From Gammaproteobacteria bacterium (GTDB lineage: Bacteria > Pseudomonadota > Gammaproteobacteria > Eutrophobiales > Eutrophobiaceae), in assembly GCA_965238225.1 (NCBI GenBank), contig OZ250183.1, positions 640,001-704,000 on the forward strand: DNA of 64,000 nt. Direction: 5' to 3'. Shown here piece after piece: positions 3,958-61,261 of the stretch (positions within the stretch are counted from its first letter, which is position 1; each line of letters begins with the position of its first letter). The notes beneath the pieces are model-generated. The model searched no databases. It was not told where the DNA came from and saw nothing but the letters and a program-made list of their open reading frames with translations. Both the position numbers and the translations under genes were made by a program.

Positions 3958-4782
3958 ATGGTATTAGTTAAACCAAAACCAACCTCTGCAGGGCGTCGTG
4001 CACAAGTTAAGGTCGCAAGTCCTTATCTATACAAGGGCGCGCCTTATGAACCTTTGCTTGAAAAACAAAGCAAAAACTCAGGCCGTAACAACAATGGTCG
4101 TATTACAGTACGTCATCGTGGCGGCGGTGCAAAACAGCGTTATCGCGTGATTGACTTTAAACGTAACAAAGACGGAATTACTGCCAAAGTTGAGCATATT
4201 GAGTATGACCCTGACAGAACAGCGCACATTGCTTTACTGTTATATGCTGATGGCGAACGTCGTTACGTCATTGCTTCAGAGGGTATGGTGGAAGGTTATG
4301 AAATAATGTCAGGTGAAGCTGTACAGATTAAAGCAGGCAACTGTATGCCATTAAGAAATATACCCTTAGGTACAACAGTTCATTGCGTAGAAATGAAGCC
4401 CGGCAAAGGTGCGCAAATGGCAAGAAGCGCAGGCGCCAGTGTGCAACTAGTCGCCCGTGAAGGCAGTCATGCAACATTAAGAATGCGTTCAGGTGAGATG
4501 AGAAAAGTTTTAGCCGAGTGTCGCGCGACCATTGGTGAAGTAGGTAATGGTGAGCATGCACTTAGATCCTTGGGTAAAGCGGGTGCTAAAAGATGGCGTG
4601 GCGTACGACCAACAGTACGAGGTGTTGCCATGAATCCTGTCGACCACCCACACGGTGGTGGTGAAGGAAGAACCTCAGGCGGTCGTCACCCAGTAAGCCC
4701 ATGGGGCGTTCCAACTAAAGGCTATAAGACTCGTAAAAACAAGCGTTCAGATAATGTGATCGTACGTAAACGTCAAAAATAA
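3958..4782 (+). CDS. rplB: 50S ribosomal protein L2
   Basis: [33 protein letters not shown]. Confidence 0.99.
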
Positions 4783-4794
4783 CGGAAACAATAG

Positions 4795-5064
4795 ATGTCA
4801 CGTTCAATTAAAAAAGGCCCATTCGTCGATCATCATTTAGCAAAGAAGGTTGATATTGCTAAAGAATCAAATGATAAGCGACCAATTAAAACTTGGTCTC
4901 GCCGGTCGATGGTATTACCAAATATGGTTGGATTAACTATTACTGTACATAACGGTCGTGATCATATGCCAGTTTATATTACGGAAAATATGGTTGGCCA
5001 TAAATTAGGTGAATTTGCAGGTACGCGTACCTTCAGAGGTCATTTTGCGGATCGAAAGAGTTAA
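4795..5064 (+). CDS. rpsS: 30S ribosomal protein S19
   Basis: [20 protein letters not shown]. Confidence 0.99.
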
Positions 5065-5081
5065 TCATCTGGATTCCACAT

Positions 5082-5414
5082 ATGTCGACATCAGCAAAAC
5101 TTAAAAATTCAAGGATTTCGCCGCAAAAAATGCGTCTGGTTGCAGACCAGATAAGAGGTTTGTCAGTAGAAAGAGCGTTGGATGTACTTACATTTAGTAG
5201 CAAAAAAGCAGCAACCATAATCAGGAAAGTGCTTGAATCAGCAATTGCAAATGCAGAGCATAATAATGGCGCCGATATTGATGAACTCAAGATATCTGAA
5301 ATACTTGTTGACGCAGGTTCAACTACGAAACGGTTACGCCCCAGAGCACGCGGCCGCGCCGACAGAATTATAAAGAGGACTAGCCACTTGAAAGTGACTG
5401 TCTCAGAGACATAA
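5082..5414 (+). CDS. rplV: 50S ribosomal protein L22
   Basis: [22 protein letters not shown]. Confidence 0.98.
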
Positions 5415-5431
5415 GTAAGGATAAAATTGTA

Positions 5432-6115
5432 ATGGGTCAAAAAGTACATCCAATAGGCATGCGTCTGGGCATTATTAAAGACTGGACGTCAACGTGGTAC
5501 GCCGACTCTGCGAACTACTCCAAGTTTTTGCATACAGATTTAAAAGTGCGTGAATATTTACAAAAAAAGCTGGAGAATGCCTCAGTGAGCCGAATTCAGA
5601 TTGAACGTCCAGCGAATAATGCAAGAATTATAATTCATACTGCAAGACCGGGGATTGTGATTGGCAAAAAAGGTGAAGATATTGATCGTTTGCGTATTGC
5701 TGTTTCAAAAATAATGGGTGTACCAGCTCAGGTAAGCGTTGAAGAAATTCGCAAGCCAGAACTAGACGCGACATTGGTTGCACAAAATGTTGCATCTCAA
5801 TTAGAGCGTCGAATTATGTATCGACGTGCCATGAAACGTGCAGTAACAAACACCATGCGATTAGGCGCTGAAGGTATCAAAATTAATCTTGCTGGAAGAT
5901 TAAATGGTGTGGAAATTGCGCGATCGGAATGGTACAGAGAAGGTCGTGTGCCCTTACATACATTGAGGGCAGATATTGATTATGGTGTTGCAGAAGCAAG
6001 CACAACTTACGGGATCATCGGTATTAAGGTATGGATATTTAAAGGCGAGATTTTTGATTACAGTAAGAAAGATAGTGCAGAAGCCAAAACCTCTAAAGAA
6101 ATTTCTGAAAATTAG
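5432..6115 (+). CDS. rpsC: 30S ribosomal protein S3
   Basis: [20 protein letters not shown]. Confidence 0.99.
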
Positions 6116-6128
6116 AAGGTATGGATAA

Positions 6129-6542
6129 GTGCTACAGCCTAAAAGAACAAAATTCAAGAAACAGAATAAGGGTCGTAATCGTGGTTTGGCTACTGTGAGC
6201 AATAAGGTGAGCTTTGGTGAATTTGGTTTGAAGGCAACAACCCGTGGGCGTATTACGGCACGTCAAATAGAAGCCGCACGTAGAACCATTACTCGCAAGA
6301 TTAAGCGTGGCGGGAAACTGTGGATCAGAGTATTTCCAGATAAACCCATTACAAAAAAACCTCTGGAAGTGCGTCAGGGCAAGGGCAAGGGCAATGTTGA
6401 ATACTGGGTTGCACAGATTCAGCCTGGCAGGATGCTCTATGAGCTTGAAGGTGTGTCGGAAGATATGGCAAAAGAAGCGTTTAAATTAGCTTTAGCTAAG
6501 TTACCTGTAAAAACAACATTTATTAATAGAACAATAATGTAA
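6129..6542 (+). CDS. rplP: 50S ribosomal protein L16
   Basis: [22 protein letters not shown]. Confidence 0.99.
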
Positions 6543-6739
6543 TGGATATTGCGGAATTAAGACAGAAAAAACCAGAAGATCTGAATGCTTTGGTATTAGC
6601 ACTACTGCGTGAGCAATTTAATCTGCGTATGCAAAAGGGTTCTGGACAATTAAGCAAACCAAGTGAGATGAAACGCGTACGTCGCACTATTGCGCGAGTG
6701 AAAACAGTGATGGCTGAAATGGCAGCAGGTAACAATTGA
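6542..6739 (+). CDS. rpmC: 50S ribosomal protein L29
   Basis: [19 protein letters not shown]; operon position. Confidence 0.97.
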
Positions 6740-7005
6740 TGGACAAAGCACAAAAAATGGCAAGGACGATCACTGGCAAAGTAATAAGCAATAAAATGGA
6801 TAAAAGCATTTCTGTATTAGAATCGCGAAAGGTGAAACATCCTTTATATGAAAAATATATTAAGCGTTCCACAAAGTTTATGGTTCATGACGAGAATAAT
6901 GAGTGTAGTGAAGGCGATATAGTCGTGATAGAAGCATCAAAGCCTATTTCAAAAAACAAAACTTGGAAGCTACAAAAAATAGTTACCAAGACTCAGGATA
7001 TTTAA
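6739..7005 (+). CDS. rpsQ: 30S ribosomal protein S17
   Basis: [25 protein letters not shown]. Confidence 0.97.
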
Positions 7006-12711: not shown

Positions 12712-13068
12712 ATGGCGCGTGTAGCTGGTGTAAATATACCTGATAACAAGCATCTGAGTATTGCATTGACTTATGTTTATGGTATCGGTCAGACACGTTC
12801 TCGCGATATATGCAATGCAACTAGCTTGAAGGGTGATATCAAGGTTAGAGAATTAACTGAAGGTGATTTAAGCAAGATTCGTTCTGAAATTACCAAGTAT
12901 GGCTTAGAAGGCGATCTAAGGCGCGAAGTCTCAATGAATATTAAACGTTTGATGGATCTTGGTTGTTATCGAGGAATTCGTCATCGCCGTGGCCTGCCCC
13001 TTAGAGGACAGAGAACACGAACCAATGCAAGGACACGTAAGGGTCCACGCAAACTTATTAAGAAATAA
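12712..13068 (+). CDS. rpsM: 30S ribosomal protein S13
   Basis: [14 protein letters not shown]. Confidence 0.99.
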
Positions 13069-13089
13069 TCGGATATAGGTTAACAAAAT

Positions 13090-13479
13090 ATGGCAAGTTC
13101 AAGCTCTGAGGGTCGCAAAAAAGTTAAGAGAACAGTGGTTAATGGTATGGCTCACATTCACGCATCATTTAACAATACAATTATTACGATTACAGATCGC
13201 CAAGGTAATGCGCTTTCATGGGCAACTGCTGGTGGCAGTGGGTTCCGTGGTTCTCGCAAAAGCACCCCTTTTGCAGCGCAAATTGCATCCCAGAAGGCTG
13301 GTGAAATGGCATTAGAATTTAGCATGAAGAGTCTCGAGGTTTTCATTAAAGGTCCAGGGCCTGGCCGAGAATCTGCAGTGAGAGCCTTGCATGCTGTTGG
13401 TCTCAAAATTACTAATATTACTGATGTGACGCCCGTTCCTCATAACGGTTGTCGTCCACCAAAGAAACGCCGTGTATAG
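13090..13479 (+). CDS. rpsK: 30S ribosomal protein S11
   Basis: [23 protein letters not shown]. Confidence 0.99.
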
Positions 13480-13498
13480 GACGAATAGAGTATAAATT

Positions 13499-14119
13499 AT
13501 GGCGCGCTATCTAGGACCAAAATGTAAATTAAGTCGACGTGAAGGAACTGATCTGTTTTTGAAAAACAGAGCAAGGCCTATTGACTCTAAATGTCATATT
13601 GACAAAATTCCTGGTGATAGAGGGGCACGGCAGAAGCGTTTATCAGATTATGCTTTACAGTTAAGGGAAAAACAAAAACTGCGTCGTATCTATGGCGTTT
13701 TGGAAAAACAATTCCGTTCTTATTACAAGGAAGCTGCAAGACGTAAAGGATCTACAGGTGAAAATTTATTAAGTATTTTGGAATGTCGTCTTGACAATGT
13801 CGTCTATAGAATGGGTTTTGGTGTAACACGTAATGAAGCTCGCCAATTGGTGAGTCATAAATCAATATTAGTTAATGGTAAAGGTGTCAATATTCCTTCA
13901 TTTCAAGTGCATACTTCTGATGTTATTTCCGTCCGCGAAAAGAGTAAAAAACAGGTTCGGATTCGGGATTCTCTGGCAATTGCAGAGCAACTTACATTTC
14001 CTGAATGGCTGGAAGTGAACACTAAAGTAATGGAAGGAACTTTTAAGTCTGTCCCAGAGAGAAATGAGTTACCAGCGGAAATTAATGAACAGTTAGTTGT
14101 TGAGCTTTATTCTAAATAG
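13499..14119 (+). CDS. rpsD: 30S ribosomal protein S4
   Basis: [22 protein letters not shown]. Confidence 0.99.
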
Positions 14120-33572: not shown

Positions 33573-36500
33573 TTAAGCTTGTGACCCGAGTACATAATCT
33601 AGCCACAAATCAGATAATTTTTCTTGTACGGTATTTTGCCTGAGACGGGCATCTAAATTTGAAAAATCTACCCTGTCCAAATCCTGATCCTGATTGTAAC
33701 AGGAATATACAAAATATTCTTCTCCAGTATGAGGGTCAACGTGTTTACATAAACACTGCGCACAGACACCTTTCATCATGCACTGCATAGGGGAATTAAT
33801 CGATCCAATCGCCGTGTGTTCAGGTTTTAGATAGGGTTTTAATTGTTCCTCCCGTGCTTTTTTTACTGCCGCCATCATTTTATCAGAACCGATAACGATC
33901 ATTTGATCAACATCTTTCAGATTAATGGTTATTTCACCGAGCTGCCCTTTTGCATAGGATTCAATCGATTCAATAATATTGCCAATACATGTCCTGTCTT
34001 GTATCCGTGTCGGTTTTATGGTTTCGACTCCAAGTGCTGGGTCAACAGACCATACAATAACGTCAGAAGCCTCTTCAATATCTTTAACTTTAAACACGTC
34101 AGTCGGACTCTTGTAACCTGCAAAATAAATAACTTTATTGTTAGTTTTACGCAGTGCCTTGCCGATAGAAAATTGCACAGCATTCCCAAGACCACCGCCA
34201 ACTAGCATGATTGTCATGCCTTCACTGATTTCAGTTGGCTCACCTGTAACACCCATAACGACAAGAGGATCATCCGGTTTCCACAAGGAACACAATTTTG
34301 AAGAACTCCCCATTTCTAATGTGATGAGTGAAATGATTCCAGTTTCCTTATTAACTTCGGCACCAGTTAGTGCTAAGCCTTCCGCAGCAAGCACTGTACC
34401 ATGAGAAACTGGCGCTAGGCTTTCTAAATTTTGGACGCGGTAGAATTGTCCTGGCTGGAATTTTCTGGCTTGCATAGGTGCTTTGACAAGCACTTCTATA
34501 ATAGTTGGTGTTAGCCTGTTAACTTCTACGACTGTCGCAAGCAATTCATTATCCAGATGATCAAAGAGTTTTTTTAAGGATTGATCTCTATCCATCTGCT
34601 TTTCAGGATCAAGTGTTTTTAGTTCTTGTTCGAATAATTTAACAACATAAGGATAACCATCTTTAGCGCTGGCCATGGCTTTAACGACGTTACCCGCATA
34701 TACAGGATGATTGTCGCCGTAGAAAGATATAAATCTTCCGTTTCTACAGTACGATGTCATAGGCGCGGGTTTGCCAATCTTTGGTTGTGCTGCATCATCC
34801 ATTGGTACCAGTTCGGGAAGTTTGGAGTTGTTCCAACGTGGCTCATAACGTTGGAAGAATTTACCATCCATGCGAAAGGTGTAGGGAATTTCCTGCTCAT
34901 AGATTGTATTTGGTGAAGTCCCAGCAGCAATAAATAGACTGCGTAACGGGACATTCAGTAAATTATCTTCACCGATCCATCTACCTTCTTTTTCAACCAG
35001 CAAGTCAAAATTAACCGCTTTTAATGCACCATATTCATCTTCAATAGCTTCATAAGGACTCATGCCTTCAGCAAGCTGAATGCCTTCTTGTAGTGCTTCG
35101 TGAATTTCTTCATGGTTTTGTTTATATGCTGGTGCATCCTTAATTCCTTTGCGATAGAACATGGTGACACCGCCCCATTGGTCAATCAATGGTTGAAAGT
35201 TTGGTGATTCTCCAACAGCTTTAGCTCTGTTACGTTCTGTACAAATTGCACGACCATGCTGTATAAATTCATCTAGTATTATGATTTCTTCTTTGTCATA
35301 ACGAGCACGAATAATTTTCTCTCCTTTTTCTAACACCAGTTTTTCATAACGATGAAGAATTTTCTCAACTTGAACGGGATAATACGCCATGACCTCGGTG
35401 GTTGTATCAAGGGCAGTCAGACCTCCGCCAATGACTCCAGCTGGCAGACGAACTTGTAAATTTGCGAGCGATGATTCCTTCGCTGCCCCGGTAAGCTGTA
35501 GTGACATGAGAAAATCAGAGGCTTTGCGTATGCCTCTGATAAGGTTGTTTTTGAGCCCGATAATAGTGGGTTTGCCGGCACCATTGGCAATAGCAATATG
35601 ATCAAAACCTAAATTCCATGCTTCTTCTATGGTTATTGTGCCGCCAAAACGGACACCACCATAACATTTGAAGGACTGACGTCTGGCAAGATTCAGGTAG
35701 ATGACCTTGAGAAAATTTTTATCCCATCGAACAGTAATTCCATATTCAGCAACACCACCAAACCCCGCAAGCATTCTTTTATCCAAGTCCTCATAGAGTT
35801 CGCTGAAATCTTTTACTGGCGTTGGTAATTTATCATTGGTACCAATGAGTTTATTTGGCAGTGGTTCAATTTTTAAAGCATCGACACCGACGACGCCAAA
35901 GCCTTCACTAACAAGATAATGTGATAAAGTGTATCCGGCTGGCCCCAAACCAACCACTAGGGTATTTTTACCATTATATGGCAGGGCGTAAGGACGTTTG
36001 ATATTGAGCGGGTTCCAGCGAGTCAGCAGGCTATATATTTCAAATCCCCAAGGCATGAACAGAACATCAGTTAACACATTCGTTTCAATTTGTGGGATAT
36101 TAACTGGTTCTGTTTTCTGGTAAATGCAGCTTTTCATACATTCATTACAGATACGATGTCCGGTTCCCGGAACCATAGGATTATCAATCGTAATAAGTGC
36201 CAGCGCGCCGATATTGTCCCCTTGCCGTTTGAGGATATGCATTTCCGAAATTTTTTGTTCAAGTGGACAGCCTGTGATGGCGGTACCAATATCTGTCGAT
36301 TTAAAACCACCCGTTTTTTTATTACGCATGCCTTTTGAGCATGAATCTGTATCTCGGTCATGACAATAGATGCAGTGGTCTACTTCATATAGAGTTTCTC
36401 TTGTATTGAAACGTAGATCAGTCAGACTAAAACCATCCCGACGTCTATGCTCATGTTTAGGGCAAACCCATGTCTTAAAACCATCACGCTGCTTCATCTC

Positions 36501-37304
36501 GTGATGAACAAGATTATTTGAGTCTGTTTTCTTTGGGTTTTTGAAACTTACCCATCCAACAACTAATTTTGAAAGTTCATCATCATTTTGTGCGGCATAA
36601 CTCCAACGCTGAACCACATCTAATAATCTATTAATGAATTCAGACGTTTGTTCTTCTGAAAGCGCAGATTTAAAAGTAGTTTTTGCATCCGTATTTTCAC
36701 TGATTAATTTTCGTATTTCCGATACCTGTATATCCGCATCATCTATGTGATCACATTGATCTTCAGGCTTACCTTTAGTAATAAGCTGATAATGGTTTGC
36801 AAGTCGTATCAGTTTTGCGCCGATACGACTGATACTTCTTTCTGCATCCGGATCGTTTGCAGCGACAGGGAAGGCCGCTTTCTTCAATAGTTCTAGATCA
36901 GAGCGTATCTTTACGATGTCCCAATTTGAAATATCTTCATTTTTGAATTTTAATTTACCGACGACTTCATTGCGATAGATAAAAATTGAATCGACTTCTT
37001 CTTTTATCAACTGGGTTTGCGCAGCAACTTCATCTTCTATCTGAAAAATCTTTGTAACAAATTTCCCTACATAAGGTGCCATGCGAATTAATAAATCAGA
37101 GATAACTTGTGGGGACATATTTTCACCCTGACGGTTCTGATATTCTTGAAATTCAGAAAATAAATCCTGATCATGTTGTTGTACAGAATCTTTAAATGTC
37201 TTGTGTAAATCACGAAGACGAAGCGGCTGATGCAAATCAGCATAAGTATATCCATTAATTCCAAGAGGAAAATCTTTGTTCGTTATTTTTGTATTTGATG
37301 ACAA
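33573..37304 (-). CDS. Fe-S flavoprotein fusion: GltD/NfnB-like domain plus FNR/PyrK(NfnA)-like domain
   Basis: Cys cluster CIYCH..SC..GCP..CNECMKSC, GLGPAG, GGGLTA, PGQFYR, GGGLGNA and C-terminal MQCMMKGVCAQC. Confidence 0.85.
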   Translation of the reverse strand: MSSNTKITNKDFPLGINGYTYADLHQPLRLRDLHKTFKDSVQQHDQDLFSEFQEYQNRQGENMSPQVISDLLIRMAPYVGKFVTKIFQIEDEVAAQTQLIKEEVDSIFIYRNEVVGKLKFKNEDISNWDIVKIRSDLELLKKAAFPVAANDPDAERSISRIGAKLIRLANHYQLITKGKPEDQCDHIDDADIQVSEIRKLISENTDAKTTFKSALSEEQTSEFINRLLDVVQRWSYAAQNDDELSKLVVGWVSFKNPKKTDSNNLVHHEMKQRDGFKTWVCPKHEHRRRDGFSLTDLRFNTRETLYEVDHCIYCHDRDTDSCSKGMRNKKTGGFKSTDIGTAITGCPLEQKISEMHILKRQGDNIGALALITIDNPMVPGTGHRICNECMKSCIYQKTEPVNIPQIETNVLTDVLFMPWGFEIYSLLTRWNPLNIKRPYALPYNGKNTLVVGLGPAGYTLSHYLVSEGFGVVGVDALKIEPLPNKLIGTNDKLPTPVKDFSELYEDLDKRMLAGFGGVAEYGITVRWDKNFLKVIYLNLARRQSFKCYGGVRFGGTITIEEAWNLGFDHIAIANGAGKPTIIGLKNNLIRGIRKASDFLMSLQLTGAAKESSLANLQVRLPAGVIGGGLTALDTTTEVMAYYPVQVEKILHRYEKLVLEKGEKIIRARYDKEEIIILDEFIQHGRAICTERNRAKAVGESPNFQPLIDQWGGVTMFYRKGIKDAPAYKQNHEEIHEALQEGIQLAEGMSPYEAIEDEYGALKAVNFDLLVEKEGRWIGEDNLLNVPLRSLFIAAGTSPNTIYEQEIPYTFRMDGKFFQRYEPRWNNSKLPELVPMDDAAQPKIGKPAPMTSYCRNGRFISFYGDNHPVYAGNVVKAMASAKDGYPYVVKLFEQELKTLDPEKQMDRDQSLKKLFDHLDNELLATVVEVNRLTPTIIEVLVKAPMQARKFQPGQFYRVQNLESLAPVSHGTVLAAEGLALTGAEVNKETGIISLITLEMGSSSKLCSLWKPDDPLVVMGVTGEPTEISEGMTIMLVGGGLGNAVQFSIGKALRKTNNKVIYFAGYKSPTDVFKVKDIEEASDVIVWSVDPALGVETIKPTRIQDRTCIGNIIESIESYAKGQLGEITINLKDVDQMIVIGSDKMMAAVKKAREEQLKPYLKPEHTAIGSINSPMQCMMKGVCAQCLCKHVDPHTGEEYFVYSCYNQDQDLDRVDFSNLDARLRQNTVQEKLSDLWLDYVLGSQA

Positions 37305-45938: not shown

Positions 45939-48100
45939 AAAACCCCTCTGAAACCCTTTAAAATAAAGGGTTTGAGATCATTCAAAGTGTGACAAACTTT
46001 GTCAAAGTAATGAAAGAATGCCAGTTTCAGAGCACTAAAAACAAACATACGGTAAACTCTCGCTACTACTGAAAGTCATAAGTTGTTAAGGATTTTGTAA
46101 AAATAATCAATTATATTTAAGATATTACTTTAAGTAAAATTTTCAAACATGGATCCTTCTATGAAAAAGAACATTTCCTATTCTACAATCGATGGAACTT
46201 TAATAAAAAAAATCGTTAGTGAAGCTGTTGATATTTTAGGTTTTGAAGATAAAAAAATTCTGCATCTTAATATTACAAACTTGTTTGAAGATAATTTTTC
46301 ACTTTTTGATACAAATAAGAATAAGAAACTTAAAAATCAGTATGTCAACAAGGAGACATCAGAATTTAACAAGGAAGAAAATCAAAAATACAGCAAAGAT
46401 ATTGATGCCATAGGTCAAATTATAGAAGGGAATTCAAAAAACAAATATGATTTTATATTTGCAGACATTCCATTTGATGGTCGATCTGAAAAAGATTATT
46501 GCCTTTCAATAATGAAATCATTGGAGTCTAGTGGTGTAGGAGTTTTTTTAATGCCTAGTTATTTAAATACTTTTAAAAGTTTTCAAGGCAAAAAATTCAC
46601 AAAAAACTTAAAAGAAGAGGGTTATAAAGTTTTGTCAGTTATCCAATTGCCTAGAAACTTAATGCGCCCAAGTAGCATGATTCAAACAAACCTAATCTTT
46701 TTAACAGAAGATAACGGCATCGCAGAAACTTATTTTGCTAAATGCTCTGAATATCAATTTTTTGATTTTCAATCTAAATTGATAGGTTTGGGCATGCTTG
46801 CACTTTATGATAAAAAAACAAGAAAAGAGTTTTTTGAAGCAGAAACAGATGAGATTAAAAAAACAAATAGAAAAAGAAAAAATTTATTTTATGGTGTTGA
46901 AGAAAATATAGATAACTTTAATGGTTTTGAGCACTGGGAGAACGAAAGAGAATTTCAAAAGATTGAAACAGAATATGGTGGTTATAATTTTTTAAAATTA
47001 AATGAATTCACCACTATCAATCAGACTAGAGATAAATTTGATGATTTAGATAATGCATTCTACATCCCTGCTATTGGAGAGACATTAGTGACTAAAGAGA
47101 TTCCAGATGAATCCTTAAAAAAGAAACCACAAAATTATTTTCAAATAATAGTTAATAATAATAGAGTAAAAAAAGAATATTTAGTTATTTATTTTAATAG
47201 TGAACATGGTCAAAAAAGTATTGAACTTGAATTCTTAAAGTATGCCGAGGTAACTATGCAGATGTTAAGAAAAACAGACATTGAAAATATCTTAATTCCT
47301 GTTCCTAATTTAGGCATTCAAGATGAAATTATTGAAAATATTTCTAAATTAAAGAAAGTTAAAACTTTACTAACAAGTATCGAAAATAGTCTTTCATTCA
47401 AACCTATATCATCCTCAGAACAGTTAAGTAAACTAAATCAAATTTATGAATCCTCTATGGACTTAAGTGAGGTAGAAATAACCTTTAATGATATAAAAAA
47501 AGGAGAATCCATAAATAGAGAGTTTAAGCAAACATTTGCATTAGATATAAAAAGTAAAAAAAGAGAAGACCATATAGTTTTCGAGTGTATAAAAACAGTT
47601 GCAGGTTTTTTAAATGGCAGTGGTGGAAATCTATATATAGGTGTTGCAGATAATTCAGACATTACCGGAATAAATGTTGAAATTGGCAGTAAGAAATTAT
47701 TTAAAAGTCTCGATAAGTATTTATTAAGTATTAAAGATACCCTTAAGAGAAAGTTAGGGGTTGCAAGTCTAAAGAACTGTAATTTTGTTCCGGTTAAACT
47801 TAAAGGAAAGCAGATTCTTACAATAAAGTGTCAACAATCAGGTCATCAAGTTTATATTGATGAAAAAGATACTTACTTAAGGGTTGGTCCATCAACAGAA
47901 AAACTTGAAGGACCAGAGTTAGTAAAATTTTCTAAAGAAAGATTTGGTTAATAGATCGAGTCAATCTTTGTCACAAAATTACTCAAAATAGGGAATTATG
48001 ATAGTTAAAACAGAATATGTCGTGACAAACTACTTTTTTCACCTCTACATCCCTTTGTTTGTAAGGTTTTCAAAATTACCGACTATTGAGTAGGAATAGA
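45921..48100. mobile_element. Integrase-less mini genomic island at the guaA 3' end
   Basis: ACTATTGAGTGGGAATAGA (45921-45939) repeated as ACTATTGAGTAGGAATAGA (48082-48100), 18/19 identical; AT-rich single-gene cargo. Confidence 0.8.
46149..47951 (+). CDS. Degenerate N6-MTase-like / TRD-like / Schlafen AlbA_2 fusion protein, putative defence
   Basis: YDFIFADIPF and VIQLPRNL (MTase-like); EYLVIYFNS, ILIPVPNLGIQDEII (HsdS-like); GESINREFK, AGFLNGSGGNLYIGVAD (AlbA_2). Confidence 0.75.
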   Translation: MDPSMKKNISYSTIDGTLIKKIVSEAVDILGFEDKKILHLNITNLFEDNFSLFDTNKNKKLKNQYVNKETSEFNKEENQKYSKDIDAIGQIIEGNSKNKYDFIFADIPFDGRSEKDYCLSIMKSLESSGVGVFLMPSYLNTFKSFQGKKFTKNLKEEGYKVLSVIQLPRNLMRPSSMIQTNLIFLTEDNGIAETYFAKCSEYQFFDFQSKLIGLGMLALYDKKTRKEFFEAETDEIKKTNRKRKNLFYGVEENIDNFNGFEHWENEREFQKIETEYGGYNFLKLNEFTTINQTRDKFDDLDNAFYIPAIGETLVTKEIPDESLKKKPQNYFQIIVNNNRVKKEYLVIYFNSEHGQKSIELEFLKYAEVTMQMLRKTDIENILIPVPNLGIQDEIIENISKLKKVKTLLTSIENSLSFKPISSSEQLSKLNQIYESSMDLSEVEITFNDIKKGESINREFKQTFALDIKSKKREDHIVFECIKTVAGFLNGSGGNLYIGVADNSDITGINVEIGSKKLFKSLDKYLLSIKDTLKRKLGVASLKNCNFVPVKLKGKQILTIKCQQSGHQVYIDEKDTYLRVGPSTEKLEGPELVKFSKERFG

Positions 48101-49464: not shown

Positions 49465-50340
49465 TTAGCTAAATGCCCATGCCGCGAAAGGTTCGATTTC
49501 ATCCTGGTTTACAACGATTAATTGATGTTTTATTGGGTTCAATGAGTGATCCGAAGTCGTATCTACGGATAATTGTTGTAACAGATAACCGATCAAAGCA
49601 CGCCGGATTTTTATTTCAATCAAATCATACTTACACTCGTAATCAATGAGCAAACTGGCCTTCTTTTTATCATCCAGATTCGGATGTGGTGCCAATTGTA
49701 CAGTGATTATCTCTGTCCAATCATCATCATACTGGGCGCTGGATTCAGCAGCCTGGTCAAGACATATTGCAGATTCAAAGCGGGACAAGACGAAATCTCT
49801 AAAATCAAATGTATCTTCGTTATAAGCGCGAACATGCCAACGAAAACCAGTGTTGATTAAAGCGTGCGCTTCGATAATACGAGATTTTTTATTACCGCTA
49901 TCAGAAAGTGAATGGTAACTAACCTTTAGTTTCTTATGGCCATGTATGGCGCGCGTAATTTGCGCAAGTACGGGCTTATCAGGGAATCGGCTCGGCAATG
50001 TTAGACCTTCGACGGGGATTCCAAAAATAGCACTTTCTTGATTGGCTTCGCCGGTTGCGACCAAATTGGCGTAAATGATAGGCAAAACAACCTCAGGGGA
50101 GAGATCGGCAAAGACTTCCTTAAACTCAAGTGTCGGGACAAATCCGAAGACATTATGTTTGTATATCAAGTTTTCTGGGGCTATATCATTGTAAAGCTTC
50201 AGGTCTTTGGTGGCGGCAGCATCTGAAACTCCAAACGCCTTGGCAACATCACTGCGAGTGATAAGCCCCGTGTAATAGGCTATTAGCTCTATATATTGCA
50301 ATCTTTGGCGTGTTGCCCATTTGATCTCATTTAACATCAT
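49465..50340 (-). CDS. WYL-domain transcriptional regulator (CapW/BrxR-like wHTH-WYL-WCX)
   Basis: RLQYIE..ITRSDVAKAFGVS..ATKDL wHTH; RWHVRAY..FRDFVLSR WYL core; start ATG 50340 or TTG 50361. Confidence 0.9.
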   Translation of the reverse strand: MMLNEIKWATRQRLQYIELIAYYTGLITRSDVAKAFGVSDAAATKDLKLYNDIAPENLIYKHNVFGFVPTLEFKEVFADLSPEVVLPIIYANLVATGEANQESAIFGIPVEGLTLPSRFPDKPVLAQITRAIHGHKKLKVSYHSLSDSGNKKSRIIEAHALINTGFRWHVRAYNEDTFDFRDFVLSRFESAICLDQAAESSAQYDDDWTEIITVQLAPHPNLDDKKKASLLIDYECKYDLIEIKIRRALIGYLLQQLSVDTTSDHSLNPIKHQLIVVNQDEIEPFAAWAFS

Positions 50341-50418
50341 TTTTTCTGTTTTTACGCCCAATTGATAGAAATATTAAGAAATTATACTAAAATCTGGCTA
50401 TAGCTATATATAATATAC

Positions 50419-56604: not shown

Positions 56605-56695
56605 GGAGAGGTGGCCGAGCGGCTGAAGGCGCTCCCCTGCTAAGGGAGTATGGGTCAAAAGCCCATCGAGGGTTCGAATCCCTCTCTCTCCGCCA
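56605..56695 (+). tRNA. tRNA-Ser(GCT)
   Basis: GGAGAGG...CTCTCCGCCA; CTGCTAA anticodon loop; long variable arm; GTTCGAATC. Confidence 0.97.
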
Positions 56696-56732: not shown

Positions 56733-56809
56733 GCGCCCGTAGCTCAGCTGGATAGAGTGCCTGGCTACGAACCAGGAGGTCGGGAGTTCGAATCTCTCCG
56801 GGCGCGCCA
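56733..56809 (+). tRNA. tRNA-Arg(ACG)
   Basis: GCGCCCG...CGGGCGCGCCA; CTACGAA anticodon loop; GTTCGAATC. Confidence 0.98.
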
Positions 56810-56827
56810 ACTCCCATCTTGTACTCC

Positions 56828-57562
56828 TTAATATGTAAATAGCGCCTTACTATCCTTGTAGTTTGTTTCAAACCGCTTCTGTCCATTTTCATCCCACCGA
56901 GTAGACAGTCCATCTTTCTTCCCATCCTTGTAGTTTCCTTCAATCTGCTTCTGTCCATTTTCATGCCACCCAGTAAACAGTCCATCTTCCTTGCCATCCT
57001 TATAGTTTCCTTCAGCCTGCTTCTGTCCATTTTCATCCCAAGTAGTAAGCAGTCCATCTTGCTTGCCATCCTTATAGTTTATTTCAGTCTGCTTCTGTCC
57101 ATTTTCATACCAAGCAGTAAGCAGTCCATCTTGCTTGCCATCCTTATAGTTTCCTTCAACCTGCTTCTGTCCATTTTCATACCAACCAGTAAGCAGTCCA
57201 TCTTGCTTGCCATCCTTATAGTTTCCTTCAGCCTGCTTCTGTCCATTTTCATACCACTCAGTAGTTAGTCCATCTTCCTTGCCATCCTTAAGGTTTATTT
57301 CAGTCTGCTTCTGTCCATTTTCATCCCACCGAGTAAGCAGTCCATCTTTCTTGCCATCCTTATAGTTTATTTCAGCCTGCTTCTGTCCACTAGAATATTT
57401 TCTAGTTACTTTTCCGGTGTAGGGCTGTTCACTATTTACTTCATAATAAACACCATTACGATTCTGTAACTGCTGTGTATCAATTGTCTTCCCATGAGCT
57501 ACTGTATTTTTACAAGCTATGAGAATGATGAACGATATGAATAATATTTTTGTTTTGTTCAT
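56828..57562 (-). CDS. MORN-variant (YwqK-like) repeat lipoprotein, 7 x 24-aa repeats
   Basis: Lipobox LIAC; repeats xNYKDGKxDGLxTxWxENGQKxxE. Confidence 0.88.
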   Translation of the reverse strand: MNKTKILFISFIILIACKNTVAHGKTIDTQQLQNRNGVYYEVNSEQPYTGKVTRKYSSGQKQAEINYKDGKKDGLLTRWDENGQKQTEINLKDGKEDGLTTEWYENGQKQAEGNYKDGKQDGLLTGWYENGQKQVEGNYKDGKQDGLLTAWYENGQKQTEINYKDGKQDGLLTTWDENGQKQAEGNYKDGKEDGLFTGWHENGQKQIEGNYKDGKKDGLSTRWDENGQKRFETNYKDSKALFTY

Positions 57563-57664
57563 CGAAATGATTCCTAAATTATTGTGTAAAAGCGTAGCTT
57601 ATTTGTAACCATTCTATTCTTTTGCTTCATTAATTGATACTAATATTAGCTATTGCGAGCGTTG

Positions 57665-57677
57665 CAAGTTATTGATT
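57665..57677 (-). promoter_or_regulatory. IHF-consensus site near att
   Basis: Minus strand AATCAATAACTTG matches WATCAANNNNTTR; one-mismatch copy at 59522-59534. Confidence 0.5.
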
Positions 57678-57706
57678 TACTTTGATATTATATATTTAAT
57701 ACTAGC

Positions 57707-57759
57707 CTACGAACCAGGAGGTCGGGAGTTCGAATCTCTCCGGGCGCGCCAATTCCCAT
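57707..57759 (+). repeat. att-like copy of tRNA-Arg 3' half (anticodon loop to CCA plus 8 nt)
   Basis: 57707-57751 identical to 56765-56809, followed by ATTCCCAT (ACTCCCAT in the other copies). Confidence 0.95.
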
Positions 57760-57769
57760 CTTGTACTCC

Positions 57770-59417
57770 TTAATATGTAAATAGCGCCTTACCATCCTTG
57801 TAGTTTTCTTCAGACCACTTCTGTCCATTTTCATACCACAAAGTAGTTAAACCATCTTTCTTCCCATCCTTGTAGTTTATTTCAAACCGCTTCTGTCCAT
57901 TTTCATGCCACCAAGTAGCCAGCCCATCTTGCTTCCCATCCTTGTAGTTTTCTTGAGCCTGCTTCTGTCCATTTTCATGCCAGTCAGCAGTTAAACCATC
58001 TTTCTTCCCATCCTTATAGTTTCCTTCAGTCTGCTTCTGTCCATATTTATCCCACCAAATCCTGAAGTTTCCTTGAGCCTTTTTCAGTCCATTTTCATGC
58101 CACCCAGTAGTTAACCCATCTTGCATACCATCCTTGAAGTTTATTTCACCCTCCTTCTGTCCATTTTCATCCCAATAAGTAGACAGTCCATCTTGCTTCC
58201 CATCCTTGTAGTTTGCTTCATCCTTCTTCTGTCCATTTTCATGCCACGAAGTAGTTAAACCATCTTCCTTCCCATCCTTGTAGTTTGTTTCAGACCGCTT
58301 CTGTCCATTTTCATGCCACAAAGTAGTTAAACCATCTTTCTTCCCATCCTTATAGTTTCCTTCAGCCTCCTTCTGTCCATTTTCATGCCACAAAGTAGTT
58401 AAACCATCTTCCTTCCCATCCTTGTAGTTTGTTTCAGACCACTTCTGTCCATTTTCATCCACAAAGTAGTTAACACCATCTTGCTTCCCATCCTTGTAGT
58501 TTGTTTCAGACCACTTCTGTCCATTTTCATGCCACCAAGTAGTTAAACCATCTTTCTTCCCATCCTTGTAGTTCATTTCAGCCTGCTTCTGTCCATTTTC
58601 ATGCCACGAAGTAGTTAAACCATCTTGCTTCCCATCCTTGTAGTTTCTTTCAAACCGCTTCTGTCCATTTTCATGCCACCCAGTAGTTAACCCATCTTGC
58701 ATACCATCCTTGTAGTTCATTTCACCCTCCTTCTGTCCATTTTCATGCCACCAAGTAGACAGTCCATCTTTCTTGCCATCCTTATAGTTTTTTTCAGCCT
58801 CCTTCTGTCCATTTTCATGCCACCCAGTAGTTAACCCATCTTGCATACCATCCTTGTAGTTCATTTCACCCTCCTTCTGTCCATTTTCATACCAAGCAGT
58901 AGCCAGCCCATCTTCCTTACCATCCTTGTAGTTTCATTTCAGACCGCTTCTGTCCATTTTCATGCCACAAAGTAGTTAAACCATCTTTCTTCCCATCCTT
59001 GTAGTTCATTTCACCCTGCTTCTGTCCATTTTCATACCAAGCAGTAGCCAGCCCATCTTCCTTACCATCCTTGTAGTTTCCTTCAGACCGCTTCTGTCCA
59101 TTTTCATGCCACGAAGTAGTTAAACCATCTTCCTTCCCATCCTTGTAGTTCATTTCACCCTCCTTCTGTCCATTTTCATGCCACAAAGTAGTTAAACCAT
59201 CTTCCTTCCCATCCTTGTAGTTTGTTTCAGCCTGCTTCTGTCCACTAGAATATTTTCTAGTTGCTTTTCCGGTGTAGGGCTGTTCACTATTTACTTCATA
59301 ATAAACACCATTACGATTCTGTAACTGCTGTGTATCAATTGTCTTCCCATGATCTACTGTATTTTTACAAGCTATGAGAATGATGAACGATATGAATAAT
59401 ATTTTTGTTTTGTTCAT
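57770..59417 (-). pseudogene. MORN-variant repeat lipoprotein, 19 full repeats plus 1 short repeat, split by a 1-nt insertion
   Basis: ORFs 58917-59444 and 57770-58864 join into 548 aa if one T at 58932-58934 is removed; N- and C-termini nearly identical to cassette 1 gene. Confidence 0.8.
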
Positions 59418-59563
59418 TGAAATGATTCCTAAATTATTGTGCAAAAGCGTAATTTAATTTGTAAACAATTCTATTATTTTACTTCACTAATCTCTACTGA
59501 TATTAGTTATTGCGAGCGTTGCAAGTTATTGGTTTATTTTGATACTGAATACTCAGTACCAAC

Positions 59564-59616
59564 CTACGAACCAGGAGGTCGGGAGTTCGAATCTCTCCGG
59601 GCGCGCCAACTCCCAT
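59564..59616 (+). repeat. att-like copy of tRNA-Arg 3' half
   Basis: Identical to 56765-56817. Confidence 0.95.
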
Positions 59617-60028
59617 AAGGATTAGAACAATTTGACTTTAGTTCGCACAAGACTCCGTAGCCTAACGTAGCTATCTACGGTTTATGATAAGCTAAAATAG
59701 GCTGATTAAATCGATAAGTTTGCCAATTTGGAGTTGAGCCAGTAAATACAGGGAAGAAATCACCGATGTCTGTTATTTATTACCCACCGAAAAATAGAGA
59801 GCCACTTGTCCTCGTTATCGGAAAACGGTATTTACCAATAGTGATATGTTGCAATACAAGAATTTTCATATAGTTTTAGTCTGTAATATTTAAGATGAAA
59901 AACAAGTGTAAATTTAAGTCTCTAAATAGATATAAGATTTTTTATAGTTAGATTACGGCTAGACTAGGCGGTGAGACTAACTGTATATTTTCAGGTGAAG
60001 ATTTTAATCTTCAATGCAGAGCCGAGCT

Positions 60029-60309
60029 ATGTCCAATAATGTTGAACTTAAATACCCTAATGAAAAGCTAAGCAAATTAGCAGATACCGTTTTGGATGAT
60101 GGGGATAAGCAACTGGGAATAGCAGTTGGTTCGCAGATTCGTACGTTTCGAGCACAGTTTTAAAGATGACAGTAGGCGAAGTTGCCAAGCAAGTTGGCTT
60201 GTCCCAAGGCATGTTGTTAAAGATTAAACGAGGCGTAACAGCACCATCTTTGGGAACGCTTTATGCTTTGGCTCGGGCATTACACGCATGGCAACAGAAA
60301 GTTCCGTGA
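60029..60309 (+). pseudogene. Frameshifted, truncated XRE-family HTH regulator
   Basis: ...LGIAVGSQIRTFRAQF* then, in another frame, MTVGEVAKQVGLSQGMLLKIKRGVTAPSLGTLYALARAL. Confidence 0.75.
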
Positions 60310-60469
60310 CAACTTTTGCCTCCCACCCATTTTCGACAGGGGAAATCTTTCCTGCTCGTGATTGGGTTTTGGACTGCATTTTAGGATTTTTCTGAAAAGA
60401 CTGTTAATTTGAGTATTTTTTATGGTATGGTGCGCGCCTAATAATATTTAAAATTGGAGATTGGGCGTT

Positions 60470-61261
60470 ATGAATGTTGTGAGAAAGATTAAAATGATAT
60501 TTTTGACTGGGTTAATGTTTTTAGGCGGCATGATAGGCATGGCAAATGTCTCAGCTGAAGAAGGTAACCCTTTTGCCGCAGAAAATTTTAGTGCAACGAT
60601 GACATTTACCACAGATTATACTTTTCGTGGTACTACGTTCAGTGATAGAGACCCAGCGCTTCAGGGCAGTTTCGATTGGGGCTATGGTTCATTCTTTGCT
60701 GGGGCTTGGGGCAGTAGCACTAACGCAACTGATGATAATATGGTAGGTGGTACGCTCGAGGTTGATTTCTATGTCGGCTGGGCTGATGCTGTCGGTGGTT
60801 TTGATTTAATGGTTATGCCCTTGCTTTATGTTTTCCCTGGTCAAAATGGTTCTGGTGCTCGAGACGATACTACCTTTGAGTTGTGGACTTCCGTTGGTCG
60901 TAGCCTTGAAGGCATGCTTGGTTCGCCTTATGTTAATGTTGCGGTTAACTGGTCTCCGGATTACTTTGATCATGTTACTTATCCTGATGGTGGTAGTGCC
61001 TTATATATAAAACCTTCTGTTTCCTTTGCCTTAGCTGAAAATTTTGGAGTAGATTTTGCCTATGGCTATCAGGATGTTGGCGGTCTAGGAGCCAACGACT
61101 TCTTTTCAGACGATTATGCGCATATTGAAATAGGTGTGACTAGCTCATTGTTAGGTTTTGGTCTTGATCTTCGCTATCATAACAACCTCGATGAAAATGT
61201 GATTGGTCAAGGTTTTGCTTTGGGTGACAAAGTCGTATTCTCGATATCACGTAGTTTCTAA
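60470..61261 (+). CDS. TorF/Gcw_chp-family putative outer-membrane beta-barrel
   Basis: Signal peptide; TTDYTFRG...PALQGSFD, GAWGS, EVDFYVG; C-terminal Phe. Confidence 0.85.
   Translation: MNVVRKIKMIFLTGLMFLGGMIGMANVSAEEGNPFAAENFSATMTFTTDYTFRGTTFSDRDPALQGSFDWGYGSFFAGAWGSSTNATDDNMVGGTLEVDFYVGWADAVGGFDLMVMPLLYVFPGQNGSGARDDTTFELWTSVGRSLEGMLGSPYVNVAVNWSPDYFDHVTYPDGGSALYIKPSVSFALAENFGVDFAYGYQDVGGLGANDFFSDDYAHIEIGVTSSLLGFGLDLRYHNNLDENVIGQGFALGDKVVFSISRSF

Follow-up and report, generated by a model that had tools for sequence, protein, structure and literature searches.

The gene for tRNA-Arg(ACG) in the window, the whole 64-kb stretch of DNA analysed here, is followed by two small units that are bounded by copies of the 3' part of that same tRNA gene and that each carry a gene of MORN_2 repeats with a predicted lipoprotein signal. 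The locus resembles small genomic islets of a kind already described, and it does not amount to a proven new mobile system. In our judgement there is about an even chance that it is a small relic islet without an integrase, left at tRNA-Arg(ACG) by a site-specific insertion, and that its single-gene unit afterwards underwent duplication in place.

Repeated 3' part of tRNA-Arg(ACG)

The locus keeps the conserved order csrA-tRNA-Ser-tRNA-Arg. ARAGORN placed tRNA-Ser(GCT) at 56605..56695 on the plus strand (Rfam 55.7 bits) as the upstream neighbour of an intact tRNA-Arg(ACG) at 56733..56809, also on the plus strand (66 bits), and these two tRNAs alone reached the gathering score in the Rfam search of the locus. 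The last 45 nt of tRNA-Arg(ACG) were found three times, at 56765, 57707 and 59564, with 0 mismatches and with 0 copies expected by chance (100 shuffles), which confirmed the threefold repeat of the original prediction. Together with an 8-nt trailer (A-C/T-TCCCAT) the 45 nt form a 53-nt block whose copies, all on the plus strand, match at 52/53 positions. Copy 1 (56765..56817) is the 3' part of the intact tRNA gene, from the anticodon loop to CCA, plus ACTCCCAT; copy 2 (57707..57759) is a tRNA-Arg 3' fragment plus ATTCCCAT; and copy 3 (59564..59616) is a tRNA-Arg 3' fragment plus ACTCCCAT, with unique DNA beyond it. Sensitive blastn across the 64-kb window detected no further copy of the 45-nt or 53-nt block.

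Identity sets in at 56765 with the first base of the tRNA-Arg anticodon loop and continues through the CCA end, and the base preceding the 45-nt block differs in each tRNA-Arg fragment. Both displaced fragments lie downstream of the intact tRNA with their orientation unchanged, and each is preceded on its left by cassette DNA that is homologous between the units instead of by a tRNA 5' half, giving the layout A-B-A-B'-A with three A copies and two B units. A displaced tRNA 3' fragment that starts in the anticodon loop is the classic footprint of tyrosine integrases that target tRNA genes, and the sublocations of integrases within tRNA genes were reportedly treated by Williams in 2002. The start of the repeat at the first anticodon-loop base and the A-B-A-B'-A layout therefore point to the footprint of a tyrosine-integrase insertion, not to simple tandem duplication, and three A copies for two B units suggest flanking att copies, since plain tandem duplication would give a different count. 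The proposal that the tRNA pieces are attachment-site copies thus gained support from their anticodon-loop start, CCA end, shared orientation and number relative to the units. RNA folds of the antisense fragments had z-scores of +0.56, -0.44 and -0.31, with no special structure, and a search for arm-type repeats near the att copies returned nothing beyond one 8-nt pair, which was not significant.

For comparison we used 80 syntenic loci obtained from one LysC scan of genome contigs, a set from which the window's own genome is absent; its best LysC relative has 85% identity, and LysC, CsrA and RecA are all singletons at 90% identity. tRNA-Arg(ACG) is present at this site in 24/80 of these loci. 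They bear on an account that would need no integrase at any time, in which the fragments would be what is left of a decayed tandem tRNA-Arg array, ancestral at this site, or would be tRNA-linked repeats, with unequal crossing-over between the tRNA copies as the source of the second MORN gene. We hold this to be quite improbable, even though the same locus in E. coli reads alaS-csrA-tRNA-Ser followed by four tRNA-Arg genes, and 3 of the 24 relatives (L046, L059 and L072) carry two full tRNA-Arg(ACG) copies. Repeats of 178 bp are known at E. coli tyrT. Loci L014, L002 and L036 carry units of 140-220 nt after the tRNA, each ending in its last 18-22 nt; such units are far too small for integrative elements, indicating that tRNA-3'-end repeats can arise here without cargo (no Rfam family matched the small units of L014, L002 and L001). 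However, the boundary of these small repeats falls in the T-arm/acceptor region, whereas both fragments in the window begin exactly at the first base of the anticodon loop, where one large class of integrases prefers to cross over. A boundary produced by decay could fall anywhere, and the cassette DNA on the left flank, where an array would have left tRNA 5' halves, likewise speaks against this account.

The two units and their MORN_2 genes

Start-to-start spacings of 942 and 1857 bp define unit 1 (56810..57751, running from the base behind one CCA through to the next) and unit 2 (57752..59608), in agreement with the two homologous units of about 0.94 and 1.86 kb first proposed. Both units combined span 2.8 kb, contain MORN_2 ORFs alone and have a G+C of 39-41%, compared with 39.6% for the window. 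The expectation of one minus-strand gene per unit held insofar as each unit has a minus-strand MORN_2 gene, but that of unit 2 is frameshifted and not intact.

Gene 1 (56828..57562, minus strand) encodes a 244-aa lipoprotein-type protein, the mature part of which has 7 full 24-residue MORN_2 repeats and a terminal partial repeat; its upstream non-coding region occupies 57563..57706. Gene 2, also on the minus strand, is split into two ORFs by a +1 frameshift between repeats 4 and 5, at 58932..58934, where a TTT run is one base longer than the run of two in other repeats. Its 5' ORF, with an extent of 58917-59444 and an ATG at 59417 (58917..59417 from that ATG), encodes the predicted signal peptide and the first 4 repeats before running out of frame, and its 3' ORF (57770..58864) encodes 364 aa of MORN_2 repeats; the upstream non-coding region lies at 59418..59563. 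The frameshift was recognised from a repeat spacing of 73 and not 72, from a spacing of 145 (2x72+1) and from in-frame stops, and repeat 11 contains a compensated +1/-1 shift. Across both ORFs we counted 19 full repeats in gene 2, besides a short one of 16 residues and a partial one at the end, so that the predicted contrast of 7 with about 20 repeats was borne out.

Mis-assembly, either of a single unit as two or in the repeat numbers and the frameshift, was weighed against these features and appears very improbable. Repeats of 72 nt at 82-99% identity are hard to assemble, and the frameshift amounts to one extra base in a short homopolymer, so the repeat counts and the single frameshift could be wrong. 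Nevertheless, the units differ at 25/146 upstream positions and in repeat type and hence are not copies of one unit, the window's proteins were assigned to one contig of 1,722,049 bp by exact look-up, and the compensated shift in repeat 11 has the look of genuine sequence history.

The PF07661 (MORN_2) matches in both units had E values of 5.6e-34, 6.1e-54 and 1.1e-20 and scores of 112.6, 174 and 71.7 bits, above the Pfam gathering cut-off of 29.6 bits. In the repeats the scaffold xNYKDGKxDGLxTxWxENGQKxxE is invariant and 7 positions are hypervariable, and both proteins end in KALFTY. The signal peptide of a lipoprotein ends in a lipobox with an invariant Cys, and both genes encode MNKTKILFISFIILIAC, with L-I-A-C at residues 14-17 read from the sequence as a putative lipobox by the usual pattern. 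The products are accordingly predicted, from sequence features, to be exported lipoproteins in which MORN_2 hairpin repeats make up nearly the whole chain, and we infer a putative length-variable envelope or surface binding protein. A PDB sequence search gave 0 matches. The promoter scan (8 sites vs 9.8 in shuffles) and the terminator scan (1 vs 2.3) were uninformative, and these scans, like that for RNA structure, did not rise above shuffled controls, so that expression of the genes is no more than presumed. There is a plus-strand promoter-like site just before fragment 2, and the scan returned no such site at the equivalent position of unit 2.

Thousands of PF07661 relatives share the repeat NYKDGK-DGL-T-WYENGQK. 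Many of the 13 relatives examined have lipoprotein-type N-termini and 0/13 have the KALFTY end, and the best overall identity among the 120 matches listed, 59-63%, was driven by the repeats. The Leptospira LIC20035 adhesin family (NF033566) matched weakly, at 48.1, 67.8 and 40 bits against a cut-off of 250, and the proteins fall outside it. Other MORN_2 families available for comparison, as far as the published accounts consulted describe them, are those under the label 'YwqK family antitoxin' and the MORN2 proteins of Fusobacterium. The neighbours of the units are tRNA genes, csrA and a TorF-family porin gene, with no toxin gene adjacent, as had been noted originally. Immunity proteins of the YwqK type are encoded beside their cognate YwqJ-type toxin gene. 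The suggestion of immunity proteins or decoys draws on the 'YwqK family antitoxin' label attached to MORN_2 proteins in databases and on nothing further; the units have no toxin gene next to them, and the proteins have a predicted lipoprotein signal.

Divergence between the units and origin of the array

Identity between the units is a mosaic. The att copies match at 52/53 positions, the 33 nt that follow them, at the 3' end of the genes, at 33/33 (with identity extending to 39-41 nt), the N-terminal coding block at 183/185 and the upstream non-coding DNA at 121/146 (83%). The near-identical N-termini, the KALFTY ends and the conserved upstream non-coding end were all verified. Both changes in the N-terminal block are non-synonymous, with 0 synonymous changes, whereas the between-gene pS of the repeats is 0.33. 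Repeat consensus sequences of gene 1 and gene 2 agree at 60/72 positions (83%), and the repeats cluster by gene, with the observed value reached in 0/5000 permutations; the closest match of each gene's penultimate repeat is that of the other gene. The difference of 1/53 in the att copies contrasts with 25/146 in the adjoining non-coding DNA (Fisher p = 0.0035), in which a conserved 24-nt block with two AGYTATTG repeats lies 40-65 nt from the 53-nt core. Judged from the 83% identity of both the upstream non-coding DNA and the repeat consensus, the two units are apparently old paralogues, and the sharply bounded blocks of 99-100% identity, being free of synonymous change, suggest that resident paralogues exchanged sequence by gene conversion.

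For the relic duplicated in place, the anatomy of the locus and what is known of tRNA-targeting tyrosine integrases suggest the following course. DNA with a gene for a MORN_2 lipoprotein would first have recombined in or next to the tRNA anticodon loop, regenerating the tRNA and leaving the displaced 3' fragment behind. An exchange between the two 53-nt copies would then have turned A-B-A into A-B-A-B-A, by RecA-dependent unequal crossing-over or through an unlinked integrase, both of which the sequence fits. Thereafter, as the sequence comparison of the units shows, the copies diverged until about 83% of positions matched in the non-coding DNA and in the repeat consensus, and within each gene the 72-nt repeats grew in number and became homogenised, yielding 7 versus 19+ repeats. 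Two sharply bounded blocks, the att copy with the gene 3' end and about 185 nt of 5' coding sequence, were kept or made near-identical, most simply by gene conversion, and gene 2 then gained its +1 frameshift, unless there is a one-base assembly error there. In-place duplication of att-flanked elements has a parallel in tycheposons, for which the portions of the literature consulted report tandem repeat junctions and, under long selection in culture, a duplicated tycheposon function. Several points count against the relic reading. An old duplication, as implied by 17% non-coding divergence, predicts drift in non-functional tRNA fragments, yet they differ at 1/53, so that gene conversion or selection on the fragments would be needed; and long survival of tandem paralogues with identical blocks, without deletion, would also need selection. 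An unlinked integrase and more cassettes may, moreover, lie elsewhere in the genome, and the expression scans gave no signal above their shuffled controls.

The near-identity of the fragments is met more directly if minimal att-flanked cassettes were acquired separately from a diverged pool through an integrase encoded elsewhere, with successive insertions at tRNA-Arg pushing earlier units downstream in an active array that stores surface-lipoprotein variants, an account that we consider unlikely but deserving of serious weight. It fits the att-type anatomy, and independent integrations would directly explain near-perfect att copies beside non-coding DNA of 83% identity. The 53-nt core is, moreover, flanked by conserved stretches, 41 nt on one side and the 24-nt block on the other, although a conserved 24-nt run within 146 nt at 17% divergence is not unusual (estimate ~0.3). 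Published descriptions, as far as we cite them, document both the stacking of elements with partial tRNAs between them and att-flanked islands that lack an integrase and for which mobilisation by neighbouring islands has been proposed.

On the other side, our Pfam scan covered csrA and 67/69 of the window's ORFs with a length of 110 aa or more (the two further ORFs being an open-ended duplicate of 28-750, and 5082-5414) and matched no integrase, recombinase or transposase family, consistent with the earlier statement that units and window are free of an integrase. No integrase relic was found in 59600-60470, where there is one HTH_3 fragment. Cassette-specific DNA queries matched the 80 syntenic loci in the tRNA part alone, as the query did in the phage and plasmid search, where its tRNA-fragment part was all that matched, and tblastn of the 244-aa protein against the 80 loci gave nothing at E <= 1e-3. 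The N-terminal 62 residues found no candidate among proteins of 134-427 or 428-2000 aa in a set of 5.8 billion protein clusters, and by exact look-up both MORN ORFs as delimited here were absent from the protein collection. In relatives, 96 stop-to-stop ORFs that lie within 4 kb downstream of the tRNA reach 150 aa; we tested 31 of the larger ones, drawn from 15 loci, together with ORFs in three tRNA-Ser-to-tRNA-Arg gaps, and found no integrase family among those tested. Gene content 3' of tRNA-Arg varies between syntenic loci.

Further evidence against separately acquired cassettes comes from the units themselves: their base composition is that of the host, one of the two genes is broken, and the blocks with zero synonymous changes need gene conversion in any case. 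The 8-nt trailer of the att copies is the host's own trailer and differs from that of the closest relative, L001, which suggests a local origin. The att-like copies of the original interpretation are therefore supported, whereas its trans-mobilised system accumulating variants is unsupported, though not refuted. With greater reserve still, we mention that the units may represent the smallest tRNA-targeting mobile DNA, single-gene cassettes of ~1-2 kb with attP and one cargo gene, moved by an integrase encoded elsewhere, such that tRNA-Arg would act as an integron-like platform shuffling lipoprotein length-variants.

Comparison with described islands and cassette systems

Cassettes that lack an integrase and are delimited by tRNA fragments have already been described, as additive islands, CIMEs and tycheposon remnants. 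Islander, by the definitions in the portion of its publication consulted, looks for an intact tDNA with a displaced downstream 3' fragment in the same orientation, and for crossover in the anticodon loop or at the T-loop/acceptor junction; the locus has the former, and with its block starting at 56765 it has the anticodon-loop crossover. The same source gives 3' fragments for 3760/3919 islands and anticodon-centred sites for 2083. Islander also asks for an integrase gene and a length of 2-200 kb, whereas the units hold MORN_2 ORFs alone (67/69 window ORFs scanned) and measure 942 and 1857 bp. Because an integrase and at least 2 kb are required, as far as their published descriptions go, standard island finders never report such units. 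If the units are mobile, this filtering by design means that a class of gene flow is undercounted, particularly in poorly sampled lineages, and moving cassettes would imply that integrases aimed at tRNA genes can act in trans on single-gene cassettes that have no integrase of their own. As a mere relic, the locus would illustrate cleanly and on a small scale how att scars can seed tandem gene duplication beside a tRNA gene, and also how repeat proteins evolve by concerted evolution plus gene conversion.

Additive flexible genomic islands such as Alteromonas fGI1 and 'Ca. Methylopumilus' fGI-2, as presented in the accounts consulted, resemble the locus in their conserved tRNA target and in cassettes bounded by tRNA 3'-end repeats, and cassettes at a tRNA gene separated by its 3'-end repeats are what we found here. 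Their cassettes have many genes, kilobases of DNA and differing, strain-variable content, whereas the two units at this locus hold a single gene each, measure 0.9 and 1.9 kb and have paralogous cargo. Like CIMEs, the units are att-flanked and without recombination and transfer genes. A CIME is further marked by excision with the help of a cognate integrase-bearing element, either in tandem or at another place in the genome, and none was found among the window ORFs scanned. According to the published excerpts, fifteen ssrA islands without an integration module are described in Dehalococcoides, and these islands and CIMEs adjoin integrase-bearing islands that could move them by accretion, a partner that this window does not contain; the ssrA islands are also much larger and target tmRNA with a 20-bp repeat, in contrast to the tRNA-Arg target here. 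Tycheposons are defined, in the parts of their description available, by a tyrosine or large serine recombinase of their own, usually with a replication module, and in Prochlorococcus many have replication genes and extend over several to tens of kilobases; the locus has none of these features. Integrons, finally, consist of intI, attI and attC-bounded cassettes with intI adjacent, whereas the repeats here are tRNA fragments and the scanned window ORFs gave no integrase or recombinase match, which places the locus outside the class. The likeness to integron arrays is one of working and not of membership, in that single-gene, promoter-poor units without a recombinase of their own are stacked at one site.

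tRNA-Arg repeats and their probable attachment-site character

The window is gammaproteobacterial core chromosome with a G+C of 39.6%, and it carries fusA-tuf, ribosomal protein operons, mreBCD-pbp2-rodA and recA-recX-alaS-lysC-csrA. Downstream of csrA lie tRNA-Ser(GCT) (56605-56695; Rfam, 55.7 bits) and then tRNA-Arg(ACG) (56733-56809; 66 bits). The 3'-terminal 45 nt of tRNA-Arg were found three times with no mismatches, at 56765, 57707 and 59564, and each copy is trailed by A(C/T)TCCCAT, giving 53-nt copies with 52/53 identity. Since no such 45-nt repeat is expected by chance (100 shuffles), the observation is real and far beyond chance. The original prediction of three copies delimiting two homologous units of about 0.94 and 1.86 kb was thus confirmed, with 942 and then 1857 bp between successive copies. 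A word-7 blastn search of the 64 kb revealed no further copies of the tRNA piece, the cassette ends or the upstream region.

The first base of the identity block is also that of the anticodon loop (CTACGAA, 56765-56771), whose stem is formed by CCTGG (56760-56764) pairing with CCAGG (56772-56776), and in both fragments the preceding base differs from that of the tRNA. The anticodon loop is an established preferred place for integrase crossover (attributed to Williams, 2002). Both 3' fragments lie downstream of the intact tRNA-Arg in a shared orientation. The block order is A-B-A-B'-A, and three A copies for two units indicate flanking att copies, whereas a plain tandem duplication would give equal numbers of A and B. 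In the Islander literature, a displaced 3' fragment downstream of an intact tRNA gene in the kept orientation is the island signature, with a 3' fragment in 3760 of 3919 islands and anticodon-centred sites in 2083. The att-like nature of the repeats, as had been proposed, is well supported by these sequence features, on the strength of which we take integrase-mediated insertion at tRNA-Arg as the probable start of the islet.

MORN_2 cargo genes and the relationship between the units

Both units encode proteins matching MORN_2 (PF07661), with unit ORFs scoring 112.6, 174 and 71.7 bits against a Pfam cut-off of 29.6. Gene 1 of unit 1 (56828-57562, minus strand) encodes 244 aa, and its N-terminus, MNKTKILFISFIILIAC, is what we take to be a predicted signal peptide with a lipobox-like L-I-A-C; one degenerate repeat, seven full 24-residue repeats and a partial repeat ending in KALFTY follow. 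Gene 2 of unit 2 starts and ends as gene 1 does and holds, as read from the assembly, 19 full repeats, one 16-residue repeat and a terminal partial repeat. The claim of one minus-strand gene per unit with common ends therefore stood for the ends and for the differing repeat numbers (7 versus 19 or more), but not for gene 2 as a single gene: between repeats 4 and 5, the run at 58932-58934 has one base too many as assembled, and the resulting frameshift leaves two minus-strand ORFs (58917-59444 and 57770-58864). In repeat 11 (58455-58480), the gain of one base and the loss of another some 20 nt away (+1/-1) restore the frame after seven codons, recoding seven residues (GVNYFVD replaces GLTT.W.), and this compensated pair suggests that gene 2 was under selection for an open frame before the frameshift at 58932-58934 arose. 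With repeat 11 omitted, the other 25 full repeats (of 26) share the scaffold xNYKDGKxDGLxTxWxENGQKxxE with little or no variation; the hypervariable positions are 1, 8, 12, 14, 16, 22 and 23.

MORN_2 proteins occur in very large numbers (E <= 0.001 for 5335 of 8000 scored candidates) and frequently carry the source label 'YwqK family antitoxin'. Among the 120 matches listed, the best identity was 59-63% and repeat-driven. Many of 13 relatives compared have lipoprotein-type N-termini, and none of the 13 ends in KALFTY. The window ORFs fall below threshold for the LIC20035 adhesin family of NCBIfam (40-68 bits against a cut-off of 250), no solved structure matched by sequence, and the N-terminal 62 residues had no relative among the 134-2000 aa proteins of a large protein set.

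Comparison of the units revealed mosaic identity. The 33-41 nt following the att copy (the stop codon and last codons) are 100% identical, and a 185-nt 5' coding block is identical at 183 positions, with both changes non-synonymous and none synonymous; the upstream non-coding region matches at 121/146 aligned positions (83%) and the 72-nt repeat consensus at 60/72 (83%). Repeats resemble each other more within genes (0.88 and 0.84) than between them (0.81), a difference reached by none of 5000 label permutations, and the nearest neighbour of each gene's penultimate repeat is the penultimate repeat of the other gene. Together with a synonymous difference of 0.33 between the repeats of genes 1 and 2, the mosaic identity and within-gene likeness mark the units as old paralogues, the repeats of each array having evolved in concert. 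The near-identical blocks, with their sharp edges and zero synonymous change, are best read as putative gene-conversion tracts. The 17% difference between units excludes a mis-assembly of one unit into two, and an assembly artefact of any kind is very improbable.

With moderate confidence, we propose a relic att-flanked islet in which the inserted unit would have been duplicated in place, and the two units later reshaped by repeat turnover and gene conversion. The att fragments are better conserved than the neighbouring DNA (1/53 versus 25/146 differences; Fisher p = 0.0035), which fits any of three causes: gene conversion, selection acting on the fragments, or integrations that took place separately. 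Fragments so well kept beside diverged DNA favour the last of these, but separate trans-mobilised integrations are less likely than the relic reading, as no mobility test came out positive.

Mobility tests and origin of the islet

Pfam detected no integrase, recombinase or transposase family in csrA or in 67 of the 69 window ORFs that reach 110 aa, in agreement with the earlier statement that the units and window lack an integrase. The units do not differ from the window in G+C (39.3% and 40.7%), and in phage and plasmid collections matches were confined to the tRNA part of the query. Using LysC as query, we gathered 80 syntenic loci from relatives (L001, L002 and so on; the window's own genome was not among them), the nearest having LysC identities of 85% (L001) and 75% (L002). 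Neither cassette DNA nor a MORN protein was present in any of the 80; these results, with the protein searches, gave no support to a trans-mobilised, variant-accumulating system. At 90% identity LysC, CsrA and RecA each cluster alone, and the lineage is essentially unsampled, which makes the mobility negatives weak. tRNA-Arg(ACG) occupies this place in 24 of the 80 loci, and the DNA after it varies by locus; in L001, csrA-tRNA-Ser-tRNA-Arg is followed by other DNA with a trailer unlike the window's. No integrase was found among 31 chosen ORFs after tRNA-Arg in 15 loci.

The 844 nt after the last fragment are gene-poor, with only a short HTH_3-like ORF (60109-60309, plus strand; E 1.9e-8, profile positions 9-48 of 55) before a TorF/Gcw_chp porin gene (60461-61261). 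This ORF could encode a Cro/CI-type regulator, either small or truncated, perhaps as a remnant of an older mobile element. Directly 3' of tRNA-Arg(ACG), L052 carries a TOTE-conflict-system primase/helicase gene (4214-6811, minus) and L053 an HTH_3-Peptidase_M78 (ImmA/IrrE-type) gene (12813-13949, plus); the site is therefore variable and in other lineages accommodates genes of defence systems or mobile elements.

ALTERNATIVES

It is normal for tRNA-Arg genes to stand in tandem here: four come after alaS-csrA-tRNA-Ser in E. coli, and L046, L059 and L072 have two each. Units of 130-220 nt whose ends are the tRNA's last 17-22 nt follow tRNA-Arg in L014 (8580-8933), L002 (9513-9736) and L036 (10288-10471) and tRNA-Ser in L001 (6489-6640). 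Those after tRNA-Arg, of 140-220 nt and ending in the last 18-22 nt, show that tRNA-3'-end repeats can arise here without an integrative element. Together with the tandem genes they favour an origin from tRNA repeats without an integrase, which is nevertheless quite improbable, given the exact anticodon-loop boundary common to both fragments and the homologous cassette DNA to the left of each.

In L014, L002 and L036, each tRNA-end copy is followed by a hairpin and T-run, and the L014 unit comprises at least 2.5 repeats, running to the contig end. The small units of L014, L002 and L001, the three scanned, matched no Rfam family. L001 also has a 22-nt copy of the tRNA-Arg 5' end (6680-6701) lying 135 nt upstream of the intact tRNA-Arg, suggesting that the locus underwent a further rearrangement or insertion.

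Comparable systems and other genes in the window

In marine and freshwater bacteria, 'additive' flexible genomic islands are described as cassettes at a tRNA gene divided by its 3'-end repeats, a layout like that of the units here. Tycheposons are described as stacked elements with just partial tRNA between, degenerate remnants included, and Dehalococcoides ssrA islands as att-flanked, without an integration module and proposed to be cis-mobilizable. Unlike these three, the units here are single-gene (0.9 and 1.9 kb), carry paralogous cargo in both and have no integrase-bearing neighbour. Because Islander-type searches accept only islands with an integrase and a length of 2 kb or more, they would discard such units.

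Elsewhere in the window, a 1243-aa ORF (33573-37304, minus) without a Pfam match at 1e-5 partially matches the NCBIfam bifunctional glutamate synthase beta subunit/2-polyprenylphenol hydroxylase family (630 bits against a cut-off of 1072). Between guaA and recA lie two genes, one for a protein of 600 aa whose C-terminal domain is Schlafen AlbA_2 (46149-47951, plus) and one for a 298-aa WYL-domain protein (49465-50361, minus), neither matching an NCBIfam model; the two flank tadA-like deaminase and cinA-like genes.
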